Shown here: one piece after another, positions 1-7,425 of the stretch
How the letters are laid out: each line of letters begins with the position of its first letter
How positions within the stretch are numbered: position 1 is the stretch's first letter
Origin: Podarcis cretensis
Lineage: Eukaryota
Reading direction: 5' to 3'
Length of the DNA stretch: 64,000 nt
Assembly: GCA_951804945.1 (NCBI GenBank)
Contig: OX638150.1
Coordinates: forward strand, 69,626,001-69,690,000
Made by a program: the position numbers and the translations under genes
The notes under the pieces: model-generated
Database searches by the model: none
What the model was told of the DNA's origin: nothing
The model's input: only the letters and a program-made list of their open reading frames with translations

Positions 1-984
1 GTCCCCTTCTCTAGTGCAGATGTTTGTAATTGGAGGAACCAAAACCCTTCATTTGAAGAAAACCCTGCCAAAATCATTAAGCTGTTCGAGGGAATATTTA
101 AAACTTATAATCCCACTTTTGATGATGTCCAATATTTGATGGACGCCTTGTTAACAACAGAAGAAACAAGGAGGATACATACTGAAGCTAGAACTCATCT
201 GAGACAGCAACAAGTTCAGGAGGCCAACATTGTCACTTTATACCCGGCAGAAACCCCAGATTGGGATTACCAAACTACCAATGGTCAGAACTCCCTCACT
301 ACCTATCGCCAGAATGTATTGAATGGCATGAGGAGGGCAGCCAGGAAGCCTACCAATTTTACTAAGGTCAGGGAGATAATGCAAGGGAGTGAGGAGCCCC
401 CAAGAGCCTATCTGGAAAGGCTGAAGGAAGCCTACCGCCAGTATACCCCTGTGGACCCAGATGAGGCTGCCAATGCCCCTATCATAAAAACTGCTTTTGC
501 AGCTCAGGCAGCACCCGATGTCCGCCGAAAAATCCAGAAACACGAGGCTTTCATGGGCCACACCCTTGAGTGGATGTTAGAATTGGCTCAAACCACTTAT
601 AATCAGAGGGAGGAAGAGGCACAAAAGAAGAAGGAGAAATATCAAGCAAAGAAGTTGATGGCGTTGCAGGCTACCACACCCACCCCTCATGAAAAGGGAA
701 GCGCCCGGGGAGGAGGGCAAGGCCGTCTGGGGAAGAACCAGTGCGCCATCTGCCTGCAGGAAGGGCACTGGAAAAGAGAATGCCCACAGGCTCACTCAGG
801 TGGAAGAGGACGAGGAGAACGAGTCCCAGGGCCAATCCCCGTGGGACCTGGACAGGAACTGAGACCCTGGACATCGGCGAATGTCGGCAGGGGTAGAGGA
901 CGTGGACAGGGACCCCCCTGGCACCCCCCAGCCCAAAGACAGCCCGGCGCAATGAGCCTGAGAGAGGAAGAAGAAGTATATTAG
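1..984 (+). CDS. gag: Gag polyprotein, capsid + nucleocapsid part (5'-partial; frame open from base 1)
   Basis: Frame 1 from base 1 reads VPFSSADVCNWRNQNPSFEENP (gamma capsid N-terminal motif), then the major homology region QGSEEPPRAYLERL and zinc knuckle CAICLQEGHWKREC; stop TAG at 982-984. Confidence 0.95.
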   Translation, partial: VPFSSADVCNWRNQNPSFEENPAKIIKLFEGIFKTYNPTFDDVQYLMDALLTTEETRRIHTEARTHLRQQQVQEANIVTLYPAETPDWDYQTTNGQNSLTTYRQNVLNGMRRAARKPTNFTKVREIMQGSEEPPRAYLERLKEAYRQYTPVDPDEAANAPIIKTAFAAQAAPDVRRKIQKHEAFMGHTLEWMLELAQTTYNQREEEAQKKKEKYQAKKLMALQATTPTPHEKGSARGGGQGRLGKNQCAICLQEGHWKRECPQAHSGGRGRGERVPGPIPVGPGQELRPWTSANVGRGRGRGQGPPWHPPAQRQPGAMSLREEEEVY

Positions 985-1048
985 GACAGACCGGGCCCAG
1001 CTGATTTAGGTTCCCGTGAGCCCATGGTCAAAATACAAACAGGGAACC
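985..1048 (+). promoter_or_regulatory. Predicted gag-pol UAG readthrough pseudoknot
   Basis: UAG, 8-nt spacer GACAGACC, stem 1 GGGCCCA(993-999)/TGAGCCC(1017-1023), stem 2 GGTTCCC(1009-1015)/GGGAACC(1042-1048), 18-nt loop 1024-1041; geometry as in the MLV readthrough signal. Confidence 0.75.
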
Positions 1049-4000
1049 GAACCATCCCCTTCATGGTTGACACAGGAGCGGCCCACTCTGTTTTGCCAGT
1101 ACCAGTGTCCAAGCCCACCAAGCAAACGATTAATATAATAGGAGCTACAGGCAAATCACAAAGAGCCCCATTCCTGCAATCTGTTGCCTGTCGCTTGGGC
1201 GGCCAAGTGGTCCAACACAAGTTTTTGTATATACCGGAGTGTCCCATCCCATTATTGGGCCGAGACCTGCTATCAAAATTACAAGCCCAGATTTCTTTCC
1301 AACCAACAGGAGAAGTAACAATGACCACAGGGCCAGCAGGGGAATTCTCCTTAGAGGTACCCTTAAGGGAACACTGGCGCTTAATGATGGTAAAAGAAGA
1401 GGAGGGGATTATTCCAGAGGACCTCCTGCAAGAAGTTAACCCTGGTGTGTGGGCAGAAAGCAACCCGCCCGGAATGGCAAAGAACATCCCACCTATAATA
1501 GTCAAGCCCAAACCATTCGCCAACCCTGTGGCTGTAAACCAATATCTTATCCCCCGAAGAGCTGCGGAGGGAGTATGGGTACATTTGGAATGGTTACTTC
1601 ACCATGGCATCCTGAGACAGTGCCAATCTCAGTGGAACACCCCACTCTTGCCGGTGAAGAAGGAAGATGGCGCGTACCGTCCGGTCCAAGACCTTCGATT
1701 GGTCAACCAGGCCGTGGAAACCCTCCACCCCAATGTGCCCAATCCTTACACGCTGCTGAGTCTAATACCTCCTACTGCATGTTGTTTCACAGTATTGGAC
1801 TTGAAGGATGCATTCTTCTGCTGCTGCCTGGCAGAGGAAAGTCAGCCCCTGTTTGCATTTCAATGGACAGATCCAGGAACAGGCACCAGGGTGCAATGCA
1901 CGTGGACGAGGCTTCCACAAGGCTTCAAGAATTCTCCAACCCTTTTTGGGGTTGCATTGGCATCGGACCTGTCTAGCTTCCCCACCAGCCCATGCAGAGT
2001 CTTGTTGCAGTACGTGGATGATCTTCTTTTGGCTTGTTCAGACAAAGACACGTGTATGGAAGCCACTAAGGACTTGCTGAACCATCTGGGTGAAGCAGGA
2101 TACCGAGTATCTAAGAAAAAAGCCCAAATATGCCAACCCACTGTGAAATATCTTGGATTTGATATATCCTATCAGCGACGGACCCTAAGGGAAGAAAGGA
2201 AGCAAGCCATTATCCAGATTCCAGAACCAAAGAATCGCAGAGAACTTCGTGGCTTTCTGGGATTGGCAGGATTCTGTTTGAATATGGATACCAGACTACA
2301 GCACAATTGCCAAGCCTCTGCATGAATCAACCAGAGGGACGGAAAAGGACCCCTTTGTGTGGGGAGAAGAGCAGCAACATGCCTTCCAGGATTTGAAAAT
2401 GGCATTGCAGCAAGCACCAGCGCTGGGTATCCCAAATCCAGAAAAGCCTTTCTCCCTGTTTGTGGATGAAGACCAGGGAACAGCAAAGGGAGTGTTATGC
2501 CAGAAATTGGGAAGCTGGCAACAGCCTGTGGCATACCTATCTGAACGCCTGACACCTACAGAACAAGGTTTACCGCCATGCATGAGAGCAGTTGTGGCAG
2601 TAGCTACCCTACTGAACAAGGCAGACAAATTTACTTTTGGCCAAGACACTGTTTGTGTGACCCCGCATGCAGTCCCAGCTCTGCTCGACATGAAGGGTAC
2701 CTATTTCCTCTCCCAAGCAAGGATGAGAAAGTGCCAGATGCTGTTGTTGCACCCACATTTGAAGTTCCAGGTTACCACCGCCCTCAACCCAGCTACCCTG
2801 TTGCCAGTAGGAGAAGGTGAGGAGCAGACGCATGATTGCATCGAAGTAATGGACGAGGTATATTCCAGCAGACCTGATCTCAAAGATGAGGCAAACCCCC
2901 ATTGGCCTTCACGGTTTGTAGATGGAAGCAGTTTTGTTGAGGCTGGGCAGCGGAAGGCGGGCTATGCAGTGGTGGCCCTGGAAGACCAGGTGATCGAAGC
3001 AAAGTCACTCCCGCCTGGAACATCGGCGCAGCTGGCAGAACTAACTGCGCTTACCAGAGCCCTGAGCCTGGCAAAGGGACAGAAAATAAACATTTATACA
3101 GATTCTAAGTATGCATTCCTGACTTTACATGCCCATGGAGCCTTATGGAAAGAAAGAGGTTTGCTTACCTCCAGGGGAAACCAGGTGGCCCACCCGCAAG
3201 CTCTATTGAACCTTCTGGATGCTGTATGGGAGCCCGAGGCAGTGGCAGTTATCCATTGCTATGGCCACAAGACTGGACCAGGGGAAGTGGCCAGAGGAAA
3301 TCGATTGGCAGACAGAGTGGCCAAGGAAGCAGCCCGGGAACTGGCCCCCACCTCAGTTATCGGAGCACTGGTCCCAGAAGAGATTTTAAGCACCGCGGAT
3401 AAGCCAGCTTACACAAAGCAGGAAAGAGACACTGCAGACGCCCAGGAACTGACATTGTCCAAAGAAGGATGGTACCTTACCCCTGATGACAGGATATGGG
3501 TTCCAGAGTCTCTTTCTCGGCAGATAACTCAGAGATACCATGATTCAACCCATATAGGACCAGATGCTACAACCAAGCAGCTGGGGAAGTGCTTCTATAT
3601 AGCCCACCTCTACCAACTGGCAGCCCAGATCTCCAGGAAATGCCTGCTATGTCAAAAGAATAATCCCAGAGCCGGACCACTGGCTCCCCCAGGGATTCAG
3701 CACATTGGAGCTGCACCTATGGAAGATCTTGTCGTGGACTTTACTGAATTACCCCGTTGTGGACTGTACCGCTACCTGCTGGTAGCAGTGTGCACCTACA
3801 CCGGGTGGGTCGAAGCATGGCCCACCAAGACTGAAAAGGCACTTGAAGTAACCAGGTGCCTGCTTAGGGAAATCATCCCTCGCTATGGATTGCCAAGGTC
3901 CATAGGATCTGATAATGGACCAGCATTTGTTCATGCAGTCCTACAGAGACTGGCAAAAGCGCTCCAGATCAACTGGAAGCTGCATACTGCTTATAGACCC

Positions 4001-4603
4001 CAGAGTTCTGGAAAGGTAGAAAGAATGAACAGAACTCTAAAGAATCAGCTGTCCAAGCTGACGCAGGAGACCGGGTCTAATTGGGTGGCAATGTTACCTT
4101 TGGCATTGCTCAGGGTCCGCAGTCTCCCGTCAAAGCGGACCCACTTGTCACCATTTGAAGTTTTGTTTGGGAGACCAGTCCCATACGTTAGAATGCTAAC
4201 TCCATATGCTAGCCACGATGTACAATTGAATAACTATGTACAGTCACTCTCCCAAGTTCTCTCCTGTCTCAACAGGTGGACCCAGGCTCGCACCCCATGT
4301 GTGCTAACTGAACCATTCCATCAGTTCGAGCCAGGTGATGAAGTGTGGGTGAAAGACTGGCAGCGAGCCCCCCTACAGCCTTGCTGGAGGGGACCATACA
4401 CTGTGCTACTTTCTACACCTCCTGCTGTGAAGGTTGCTGGCATCACCCCGTGGGTCCACCATACTCGAGTGAAGAAAGCCATTTCTGACTGGACAGTTAC
4501 ACCAGATCCAGAGAACTCCCTTCGGCTGACTATCTCCAGACGCCTGGCAGACGACCGCTCTGCTGATATCACACCGGAAGCTGATATCTCTACGCACAGC
4601 TGA
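985..4603 (+). pseudogene. pol: pro-pol (protease, RT, RNase H, integrase) with one +1 frameshift at ~2277-2282
   Basis: In frame with gag after the TAG. ORF 1024..2325 has protease VDTGA and RT LPQGFKNSP/YVDD. It continues in frame 2 (IWIPDYSTIAKPL..., ORF 2357..4603) with RNase H FVDGSS/SAQLAEL/YTDSKY and integrase HHCC, D-D-E (VVDF, SDNG, KVERMN) and WRGPYTVLL. Confidence 0.95.
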
Positions 4604-4611
4604 AGAATTGG

Positions 4612-4998
4612 ATGGGAGGGGCGCCCACCGGGAGTGCCTCCAACGTTCCAGCCTTGCAGCCTTTGTCCCCTGATAACGTTCAGAACCCTGAACGAACTTT
4701 AGTGTGCATTATATGGTGTGAGGAGGAAGCAGTGGGGATTTTGACACCAAGCATTTGCCGTTTACAGGCGGCTACCTATTCGTGTGGGTGTGTAGTGGCC
4801 CATCCACCATGGGTATCCTCTCCTTGGGGGGCGAAGTTGTCCTCCACCCATCAGGGGTACCACCATCCCCCGGGGATTGAGGGGTTTTATCTCCACACCA
4901 TAGGGTTCGACGCTTGGAGGTATCCCCGACCTTGTTTCCCTAACCAACTCGAGCGTCCGGGGAGCCCCAACCCCCTTCCAGACCCATACCATGACTGA
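4612..4998 (+). CDS. Putative retroviral accessory ORF (ORF-X), 128 aa, Cys/His/Pro-rich, unknown function
   Basis: ATG 8 nt after the pol stop; open across the whole pol-env gap; its stop overlaps the env start (ATGACTGA, 4991-4998). No recognised homology. Confidence 0.55.
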   Translation: MGGAPTGSASNVPALQPLSPDNVQNPERTLVCIIWCEEEAVGILTPSICRLQAATYSCGCVVAHPPWVSSPWGAKLSSTHQGYHHPPGIEGFYLHTIGFDAWRYPRPCFPNQLERPGSPNPLPDPYHD

Positions 4999-6487
4999 TC
5001 TGTGGTGGGAGGAACCATGGAATTATTGGGGTTGGTGGCTGGCGGTGATTTGTACAGCTCTGATCTTTTGGATGCTTGCTTATTTCTGTTGGCATGAGCG
5101 TGGCCGAATTTGTGGGAGAAAGCGTAATCCAGCCATACCCCTAATGATACTCATCCTCTTTTTATCAGAAGGATCTGATGGCACCATCACCCCAGGACAG
5201 GGAGTCAAGATCTCCTATGCCAATGTCACCAAACAAATATATGATTGGGGAGCCAGAAGCCCCCACAATAGGTGGTTACAGATGGCCGAAATGATGGCCC
5301 ATTCAGTTAATAAGACGAAATGTCTGGTATGCACCCTTGCCCCAACGGATGCTCTGGGAGGCTTACCTTTCCTCCCATTGCCATTCAATTATTCCACCAT
5401 CCGGAATTTCTCCAAGCTCCCAGATTCTGAGCTCTGGCCACAATGGGACCACCCATCCCCTTTAAGAGTCCATAGGGTTCGTGGACAGTTGTGTGTGACG
5501 CAGCAAAGGAGTCAGTCCTCACCTATTTTTGTTGGAATGTCCCACTGTACCTGCTCTTGTGACCCAGGCAATGTGACATCACGAAACAGTAGGGTCACCT
5601 ATCTAGGGTGTGATGGAAGGTGCCAGGCTTTGATAGAAATCCTTAATCGAATCCTGATCACGCAGAAGGGTGTAAGCCAGAGAAAATTGGGTCTTTATTG
5701 GGTTTGTGGAACCACTGCTTATCATGATTTGCCCTACCCCTGGCATGGGACTTGCTTCCCTGCCTTTCTTTTACCCCCCATGTGGATTTTGTCCCCTTCT
5801 CAAAAGCCCTGGCGGCAACGCCGCTCTGTGGACATATCAGGGATCGCCTCAGGCAGTAAGCAAACCTGGGGAAAGGACGAGTGGCCACCTGAACGAATAA
5901 TTACCCATTATGATCCGGCCTCCTGGAACCCTGGTGAGTTGGTAACTGGCGCCAGGGAGCCCATTTATAATCTTAACCGAATCATCCGACTCCAGGTGGT
6001 AGTGGAAATTGTGGCCAATGCCACGGCCACCGCGCTCAGGTTGGTAGCCAAACAATTAGATGAAACCCGAATGGCCGTCCTCCAATTGCGTCTGGGAATG
6101 GATTTTCTTCTGGCAAAGCAAGGTGGCTTTTGTGCAGCCCTCAATCTAACTGGAGGAGCCTGCTGTTTTAACATTTCAGATCATGGAGAAGCCATCCGCA
6201 ATTTAGCAGCCAGCATCGAAAAGGTAGCACATGTCCCCGTGCAGACTTGGAGTGGGTGGGACATGTCCTGGCTGGATGGTATCTTTCCTGGGGGATGGAT
6301 GGGGCGTATTGTTATGATATTGATAGGGCCTCTAATGCTTTTATTATTGCTCTGCTTTTGTATCCCCTGCTTGATGCAATGTATGCAACATATGATGGAA
6401 AAGATGATATCCCGCACGATGGGACCTCGCGTGATTGCTGTAATGAGAGATTATAGACCCCTACCCCAGAACGAACCTAGGTATTAG
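4991..6487 (+). CDS. env: Envelope glycoprotein (SU+TM), open 498-aa ORF
   Basis: Kozak ACCATGA; hydrophobic leader; SU CLVC (5321-5332); furin site RQRR (5813-5824); heptad region; ISD LQLRLGMDFLLAKQGGF; C-X9-CC (6131-6166); TM helix IVMILIGPLMLLLLLCFCIP; cytoplasmic YRPL; several N-X-S/T sites. Confidence 0.95.
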   Translation: MTDLWWEEPWNYWGWWLAVICTALIFWMLAYFCWHERGRICGRKRNPAIPLMILILFLSEGSDGTITPGQGVKISYANVTKQIYDWGARSPHNRWLQMAEMMAHSVNKTKCLVCTLAPTDALGGLPFLPLPFNYSTIRNFSKLPDSELWPQWDHPSPLRVHRVRGQLCVTQQRSQSSPIFVGMSHCTCSCDPGNVTSRNSRVTYLGCDGRCQALIEILNRILITQKGVSQRKLGLYWVCGTTAYHDLPYPWHGTCFPAFLLPPMWILSPSQKPWRQRRSVDISGIASGSKQTWGKDEWPPERIITHYDPASWNPGELVTGAREPIYNLNRIIRLQVVVEIVANATATALRLVAKQLDETRMAVLQLRLGMDFLLAKQGGFCAALNLTGGACCFNISDHGEAIRNLAASIEKVAHVPVQTWSGWDMSWLDGIFPGGWMGRIVMILIGPLMLLLLLCFCIPCLMQCMQHMMEKMISRTMGPRVIAVMRDYRPLPQNEPRY

Positions 6488-6496
6488 GTTGTTCAT

Positions 6497-6511
6497 AAGA
6501 AGAGGAGGGAG
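6497..6511 (+). other. Polypurine tract (plus-strand primer)
   Basis: AAGAAGAGGAGGGAG between the env stop and the TG that opens the LTR. Confidence 0.85.
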
Positions 6512-7169
6512 TGAAGGGAGATGGGAAGGATTTCTCTCAAATATTTGTACCTTGTACCTAAGAAGGGTTGCTCTCAAATATTATCTGCAGTAAATTTCTG
6601 TGCTAATCCTGTGCTAATCTTATTTCTGCAATTGTGGTCAGACAGTTAGCACACAGCCTTGCTAAATCTGTCTGGCAGGTCAAGAGTCCATTTCCTGCCT
6701 TGTCAGCTAGCAAGAAACTGCAGCTGTTTGCAAATTTAACCAGGCCTGTTAAGGAGGCCGTTTCTTGCCTTGCGCTTCCTGCCTTAGTAATGCAAAGATA
6801 AGAAAAGACACGTATAAGCAAAAGGGGAGGGGGAGTGCTTAGCCAGCAGAAAGACATGTATGAGGGAAGGTAAAGTGTTTAGCAAGCAATATAGATGTGC
6901 CATATAAGGGAATAAGTTGAACATTTGCCAGCTGATTGGAGAAGTTTGGGGAAGGAATGGGAGGGGGGAGAATGTTCAGAAAAGTATAAGAAAGTTTGCT
7001 GAAGTGTCTTGCTTCACAACCAGTTTTTCAGAACCTATTCTGCTGGTTGTCTCTGTGCACAGATTACAATAAACTATTTTCTCCAAAGAAGAATCTTTCC
7101 TGGTGCTTTTTGCTCTCTCTTCGGTACTGGGGACGCGGGCAAACGATTCCCTGGCGAGGACAAGGTTCA
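6512..7169 (+). repeat. 3' LTR (~660 bp; right end could instead be the CA at ~7176)
   Basis: Starts TGAAGG after the PPT and ends GGTTCA (TGAA/TTCA terminal inverted repeat). Reverse CCAAT at 6935-6939, TATAAG at 6985-6990, AATAAA at 7068-7073. The 5' LTR is not in the window, so the end cannot be confirmed. Confidence 0.8.
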
Positions 7170-7425
7170 GGCTACACCATCTTAAGTTGAAGCTGCATAG
7201 GCCTTGTGGTGCATGTGATTCTATTCAGTTGAACCTCTGGTTACAAAGTTGGTTGGACAGTGTTCTCAAAGCTACCAGCATGCGTTTGACCAGACTGCAG
7301 GAGGACAGGAAGACTGGAGTGCCTGGAACAGATGAGGCTGCAGGTCCCTTATTTTGGCTGCTGGTCCCTTATTTTCAAGGCTGCTGGTCCCTTATTTTCA
7401 AATCTGTAAGTTGACAGCTATGTCA

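Follow-up and report, generated by a model that had tools for sequence, protein, structure and literature searches.

Gamma-like retroviruses are the textbook simple retroviruses, with no separate gene between pol and env. In a 64,000-nucleotide stretch of the Podarcis cretensis genome (hereafter the window) we examined a provirus that does have such a gene candidate, a 128-codon open reading frame designated ORF-X, which raises the question of whether a gamma-like virus encodes a genuine accessory protein at this position and, if so, what that protein does. The boundaries given by a sequence-only reading of the window were correct, with the pol stop at 4603, the env start at 4991, the ORF-X ATG 8 nt past the pol stop, and the ORF-X stop overlapping the env start as ATGACTGA. 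The proviral features in the window are:

1..984, + strand: 3' portion of gag with capsid and one CCHC knuckle; its terminal TAG is in frame with pro (readthrough type).
985..4603, + strand: pro-pol, with a frameshift near 2.3 kb in the window copy and its stop codon at 4601-4603.
4612..4998, + strand: ORF-X accessory gene, 128 aa.
4991..6487, + strand: env, 498 aa, gamma-type, with TLV_coat and syncytin-2 matches.
6512..7176, + strand: 3' LTR, followed by a 4-bp target duplication.

The window starts within gag, and the 5' LTR lies upstream of it. The two LTRs share 99.4% identity across 337 nt; with a primer site matching tRNA-Gly(GCC) and the 4-bp target duplication, this indicates a young insertion. 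The reverse transcriptase best matches MLV-type p80 enzymes (E 4e-93, versus 7e-34 for the next group), and further class I gamma-like traits are present, including gag and pro-pol in one frame split by a TAG, one CCHC knuckle, and a GPY integrase. The env surface subunit has a CxxC motif, and the cysteine motif of the transmembrane subunit (about 6150-6190) is CX9CC, where the usual form is CX6CC. Judged by reverse transcriptase, gag-TAG-pro layout, and integrase sequence, the window provirus is a class I gamma-like ERV. It resembles MLV-type gammaretroviruses in all three, in its single CCHC knuckle, its integrase C-terminus, and its gamma-type env, whereas in the clade that carries ORF-X the pol-env interval holds from one to four additional ORFs.

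By chance, an open frame as long as ORF-X arises in 196 of 3000 dinucleotide shuffles of the pol-env interval and an ATG-started ORF of at least 120 codons in 27 of 3000; conservation decides that ORF-X is a gene. In provirus L032, ORF-X is open, 70% identical to the window copy, and overlaps env through the same stop/start arrangement. Pairwise counting between these two copies gave a dN of 0.20, a dS of 1.76, and a dN/dS of 0.12 (pN≥pS in 0 of 500 bootstraps), similar to the 0.14 of their env genes, and their differences were distributed 30/19/67 over the three codon positions. The other five frames across ORF-X contain 5-14 stops each and returned ratios of 1.18, 2.13, 1.20, 0.24, and 2.17, the value of 0.24 belonging to an antisense frame with common third positions and 10 stops. 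The L006/L038 pair gave a dN/dS of 0.28 and all 10 allele pairs fell below 0.52, although dS is close to saturation in most pairs and these ratios are therefore rough. Among eight near relatives, ORF-X is open in four, frameshifted in three, and deleted together with env in one. Of the three frameshifted copies, L070 alone retains an open integrase and env, the other two being broken there as well, and ORF-X is broken in just one of five copies with open integrase and env. Intact relatives keep it fused neither to pol nor to env, and an ATG and stop of its own occur in each of four lineages as well as in public assemblies.

ORF-X is thus a genuine gene kept by purifying selection. The sequence-only reading had proposed an accessory gene in a gamma-like ERV that should stay open, remain unfused, and show a dN/dS below 1, and had argued from its tight packing against chance; the proposal is supported by the low dN/dS, by the relatives with an open ORF-X, and by the lack of fusion in intact relatives. 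The contrary view, that ORF-X is a frame opened by chance over non-coding spacer or else part of env or pol shifted out of frame, can cite the 196 shuffles and L070, in which the 3' half of the frameshifted ORF-X reads into env, and is refuted by the third-position bias, the low dN/dS, and the stops in every other frame, as well as opposed by the independently retained ATG and stop, leaving it next to no probability.

A protein search of the genome returned 38 ORF-X matches, every one in a proviral context. The gene occurs there in four lineages, namely the window type, L006/L065 (117 aa), L061/L062/L105 (138 aa), and L099, the most distant allele (profile E 0.007 among 2556 segments), with further family members in public assemblies (P0001, P0002, P0012-P0014). 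We aligned 15 ORF-X rows that are 29-70% identical to the window allele; they form three subfamilies and so are not 15 independent observations, and the alignment omits L033/L067, L034 (frameshifted), L099, and most copies of a deleted family described below. Nine residues (Y56, S57, C58, C60, P71, L76, H80, H85, and G91) are invariant in all 15 rows, and the spacing C-x-C-x19/20-H-x4-H is constant across alleles of just 29-40% identity, defining the following feature:

4777..4866, + strand: ORF-X core motif Y56-S-C58-G-C60...P71...L76...H80-x4-H85, a predicted zinc site, present in 15 of 15 aligned rows.

Because these four ligands are invariant in the aligned rows, we consider it quite probable that ORF-X binds zinc at a single site formed by C58, C60, H80, and H85. 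This retains part of the Cys/His cluster noticed earlier, of which C32, C36, C49, and C108 are not conserved; nor are the proline-rich ends, which had been listed as a feature of the product. Outside the alignment, L033/L067 have an open ORF-X in which C60 is replaced, and L099 retains C-G-C with the histidines out of frame. The zinc sites of Vif and Vpx have a ligand order other than the CxC...H...H of ORF-X. An AlphaFold model of ORF-X places five strands over residues 31-97 at poor confidence (pLDDT 45), and the protein may be a small, beta-rich one folded around its zinc. A fold search with this low-confidence model reached a best Z of 3.7 in the PDB and found nothing at E<=0.001 in BFVD; zinc-ribbon-like and intein rows were mixed among the matches and were given no meaning.

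Sequence searches for relatives covered this family and a second one, A/C, encoded by neighboring ORFs described below. Pfam contained no family at E<=1 for any of 15 ORF-X or 11 A/C rows, and a single-sequence ORF-X search of 5.8 billion proteins gave seven candidates, none at E<=0.1. The ORF-X profile matched three of 1.84 billion proteins, two of them family members and the third an unrelated repeat protein (P0004, E 7e-4), which we dropped as a 3835-aa protein without the motif. Further profile searches yielded family members alone, three for ORF-X and seven for A/C. The ESM Atlas held no usable match for ORF-X or ORF C, a PDB search by sequence produced two chance rows (His tags) for ORF-X and none for A/C, and scans of IMG/VR and metagenomes gave 10 pattern matches each, none confirmed.

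These searches bear on whether ORF-X is instead a captured piece of a host gene that travelled with the virus and was adapted only recently. Reptile ERVs are known to capture genes between pol and env, and CrocERV29 has an extra ORF there (PMC4299795); that ORF is a recognizable host mRNA (KIT-ligand), whereas ORF-X belongs to a diverged viral family for which we found no host relative. Our search could have missed a host gene made up of short exons, but the exclusively proviral genome matches, the failure to find a cellular homologue outside proviruses, the empty Pfam result for the 15 rows, and the absence of a cellular relative among the three profile matches make a captured origin highly unlikely.

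Just upstream of ORF-X we found an RNA element that, like the gene, recurs among relatives:

4557..4600, + strand: conserved hairpin in the RNA, consisting of a stem, a 3' bulge, a second stem, and a loop; it covers the final pol codons, 11 nt ahead of the ORF-X ATG.
L095 3669-3751 and L098 3371-3453: the hairpin in two relatives.

Ten of its 14 pairs have changed on both sides across seven lineages, 96% of cells are paired compared to 19-40% in slid controls (a comparison that favors the structure, which was derived from the same sequences), and none of 500 shuffles reached its covariation score. Single-sequence folding energies are ordinary (z -2.45 to +0.47), and the case for the hairpin accordingly rests on covariation. 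With a model of it, 20 of 35 sources show a single copy per provirus, among them the held-out L098 at 59 bits; the model has no match in L061, L062, L105, the deleted family, or a distant integrase clade; Rfam has no match in window positions 4300-5200, which include the hairpin. In the window lineage the element falls inside the pol coding sequence, whereas L095, L099, L100, and L101 have it beyond the pol stop. Its distribution does not follow that of ORF-X, since it is kept in L100, L101, and the L095 family, which lack the gene. It invariably occupies the 5' boundary of the block formed by the accessory genes and env, suggesting that it likely governs splicing, export, or translation of a subgenomic RNA.

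Lying 11 nt upstream of the ATG in both the window lineage and L099, this strongly covarying hairpin could also be what ORF-X acts on, if ORF-X were a Rev/Rex- or Tat-like regulator that binds it to control RNA export, splicing, or translation; small zinc-binding proteins are able to bind RNA. However, the hairpin persists where ORF-X is missing, the model does not find it in the ORF-X-bearing L061/L062/L105, and free loss or swapping would be unexpected for a strict regulator. ORF-X also has no Arg-rich RNA-binding motif, with at most 1-4 Arg/Lys per 12 residues across the 15 rows. The protein is acidic to neutral, with <=2 Arg/Lys per 12 residues in the window allele and no membrane segment, a composition that favors a protein-binding adaptor over an RNA binder. 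We regard the regulator reading as rather improbable.

For the expression of an accessory adaptor of this kind, we envisage a subgenomic RNA starting at or near the hairpin from which ORF-X would be translated, with env depending on either another splice acceptor or reinitiation where the two genes overlap. ORF-X contains two out-of-frame ATGs, and in the window a pyrimidine-rich AG, not strictly kept in relatives, lies 9 nt before the env ATG. A calicivirus-type restart signal was considered for the ORF-X/env overlap, and inspection by eye revealed no conserved motif matching it there. Among the joints listed, no contig connected a leader to ORF-X or env; none of the public sources with matches is recorded as RNA, and 16 are merely guessed to be.

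Proviral lineages differ in the content of the pol-env interval, with ORF-X duplicated in some and lacking in others. L061, L062, and L105 hold ORF A (133-134 aa), an X homologue, ORF C (130 aa), and ORF D, and parts of this set recur elsewhere:

L062 4569-4973 and 5439-5831: ORF A and ORF C, tandem paralogues.
L095 3859-4047, L062 5840-6298, and L100 on the minus strand just before env: ORF D; window counterpart, 4991-5100.
4991..5185, + strand: long env leader in which a Trp-rich membrane segment (residues about 15-33) precedes the signal peptide; homologue of ORF D, which is a separate small ORF in sister lineages.

ORF C is a paralogue of ORF A (34% identity, E 4e-10), and their family is found also in L105 and P0005-P0010. 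ORF A is under purifying selection (ratio 0.37, 0 of 300 bootstraps against). The ORF C model (pLDDT 63) has one helix and a beta-meander, and a fold search with it found no known relative (best Z 5.4, best BFVD E 0.07); a relationship between ORF-X and A/C is undetectable (probability 0.1%). ORF D is a small membrane ORF overlapping the env start in L061/L062/L105. It is the sole occupant of the interval in the L095 family (62 aa), which has no ORF-X, and measures 80 aa in L100. In the window lineage a D-like segment, 34% identical to the L095 ORF D over 32 residues, is fused in frame to env as its start, forming a leader with a membrane segment ahead of the signal peptide. L061-L062-L105 share with the window a common accessory region and a related pol, yet their env is about 25% identical, indicating that env has also been exchanged. 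A distant integrase clade (L097, L102, L103, L104, and L110; 100/100 split) has no match to X, A/C, or the hairpin. In L100, about 600 nt separate the pol stop from ORF D and include open stretches without an X or A/C match; this interval may hold another accessory gene.

Comparison of the window with its nearest sister provirus delimits an exchanged segment:

4647..5002, + strand: exchanged cassette, in which the sister holds another ORF-X allele.

L006/L065 are 97.6% identical to the window in nucleotides over 3858-4646 and 98.7% over 5003-6500, and only 49% identical inside ORF-X. The integrase tree pairs the window with L065 (98/85), while the ORF-X tree pairs it with L066 (86/92; forks not starred) and groups L065 with L070 plus the deleted family. 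Crossovers map to the first 12 codons of ORF-X on one side and to the opening codons of env on the other. Contigs of other organisms break at the same points, with joints at 4646-5003 in runs X4 and X13 and loose ends at 4646 and 5003 in run X1. In one X1 contig the window ORF-X allele, with 19 differences and 2 gaps over 461 nt, is followed by an env whose surface region differs. Because pol and env are about 98% identical where ORF-X is 49% identical, the sequences indicate that ORF-X is traded between virus lineages as a cassette; swapped independently of env, it is not matched to one Env. The sequence-only reading had noticed neither this exchange nor the hairpin, the extra ORFs of relatives, or the membrane segment at the start of env.

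Independent swapping weighs on the proposal that ORF-X is a zinc-binding accessory protein serving another step, such as growth or tropism, help to Env or assembly, or a small catalytic activity. All the evidence for a real gene applies equally to this proposal, the stop/start overlap couples ORF-X to env in the window lineage, and growth-promoting pol-env genes exist, KIT-ligand in CrocERV29 being one (PMC4299795). Against it, the alleles are exchanged without regard to env, down to the X1 contig in which the same allele precedes another env surface region, and four ligands would suggest a structural rather than a catalytic zinc. We consider a role in another step unlikely, if less so than a regulatory one.

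We give about an even chance to counter-defence, in which ORF-X, a selected and exchangeable accessory gene, would encode a zinc-fold adaptor that likely disables a host antiviral factor. The lentiviral genes vif, vpr, vpx, and vpu are counter-defence genes located between pol and env and subject to gain, loss, and duplication. ORF-X resembles them in its position, small size, and set of zinc ligands and in its gain, loss, and paralogue duplication, and ORF D in L095, L100, and L105 resembles the vpu region as a membrane ORF overlapping the env start; in contrast, ORF-X has no sequence match to Vif, Vpr, Vpx, or Vpu, its model is beta-rich, and its backbone is gamma-like. Up to 76 of 150 scored integrase matches belong to the L095 family (of these 76 we read one, along with six neighbors), and since this family is abundant without ORF-X, the gene appears dispensable for the core cycle. 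Together with exchange independent of env and the lack of an Arg-rich motif or membrane segment, these patterns favor counter-defence. The zinc core would be structural and the variable surface would contact, and the adaptor inactivate, the host factor, which would explain the fast divergence and exchange of alleles. The argument is one of analogy and evolutionary pattern, with no target, partner, fold, or family match.

Taken jointly, the observations tentatively suggest, at somewhat less than even probability, a reptile clade of complex gamma-like retroviruses with a modular counter-defence region evolved independently of lentiviruses. Under this joint reading, zinc-binding X and beta-sheet A/C families would be joined by a Vpu-like membrane protein, either separate or fused to Env, with a structured RNA controlling their expression and alleles being traded in an arms race with reptile antiviral factors. 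The ORF-X family itself is real and apparently undescribed. In earlier work, viruses with a gamma-type Env are described as usually having few accessory genes or none (PMC9967133), gamma-related ERVs of fish and amphibians have simple layouts (bioRxiv 2021.11.23.469661), and accessory genes are listed for the delta, lenti, HERV-K, epsilon, and spuma groups, with those of novel type being hard to recognize (PMC1224870). Fish foamy-like ERVs have pol-env ORFs, acc3 and acc4, that were likewise accepted as accessory by conservation across proviruses, but on a class III backbone and with 334-465 aa, a likeness without implied homology (PMC5512871). The accessible parts of PMC8922424, PMC9723728, PMC6001957, and PMC12690878 contain nothing on pol-env accessory genes of such a clade, and we found no description of it in the literature, although subscription journals, supplements, or repeat libraries may hold one.

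Carrying one to four accessory genes where lentiviruses have theirs, the clade shows that this layout has evolved again on a gamma backbone, and it adds two protein families (X and A/C) and one RNA element without known relatives. If the counter-defence reading is true, these gamma-like viruses would be complex in HIV's manner. Accessory genes have repeatedly led to host antiviral factors. Retroviral defence in reptiles is little known, and small proteins of the ORF-X type are direct baits for its factors. Comparing naturally swapped alleles on 98%-identical backbones, and lineages that have naturally lost the gene, offers a way to test the question.

The deleted family (L116-L119, L038-L060) consists of young elements chimeric between two lineages, with LTRs 99.85-100% identical in the four copies read. 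They keep a full X preceded by a truncated paralogue of it, along with ORF A, while most of pol and env is gone. ORF-X is open in 22 of 23 copies, and ORF A has frame changes in 12 of 23. Its X variants comprise 15 synonymous and 16 non-synonymous changes (P 0.003 to 0.09, depending on the expected share), no more than a hint. In L002 and L004/L111, most of ORF-X and env has been deleted together, leaving the first ORF-X codons near the env tail. L064 has a primer site matching tRNA-Gly(GCC), and its 5' LTR (about 5204-5574) lacks ~295 nt found in its 3' LTR.
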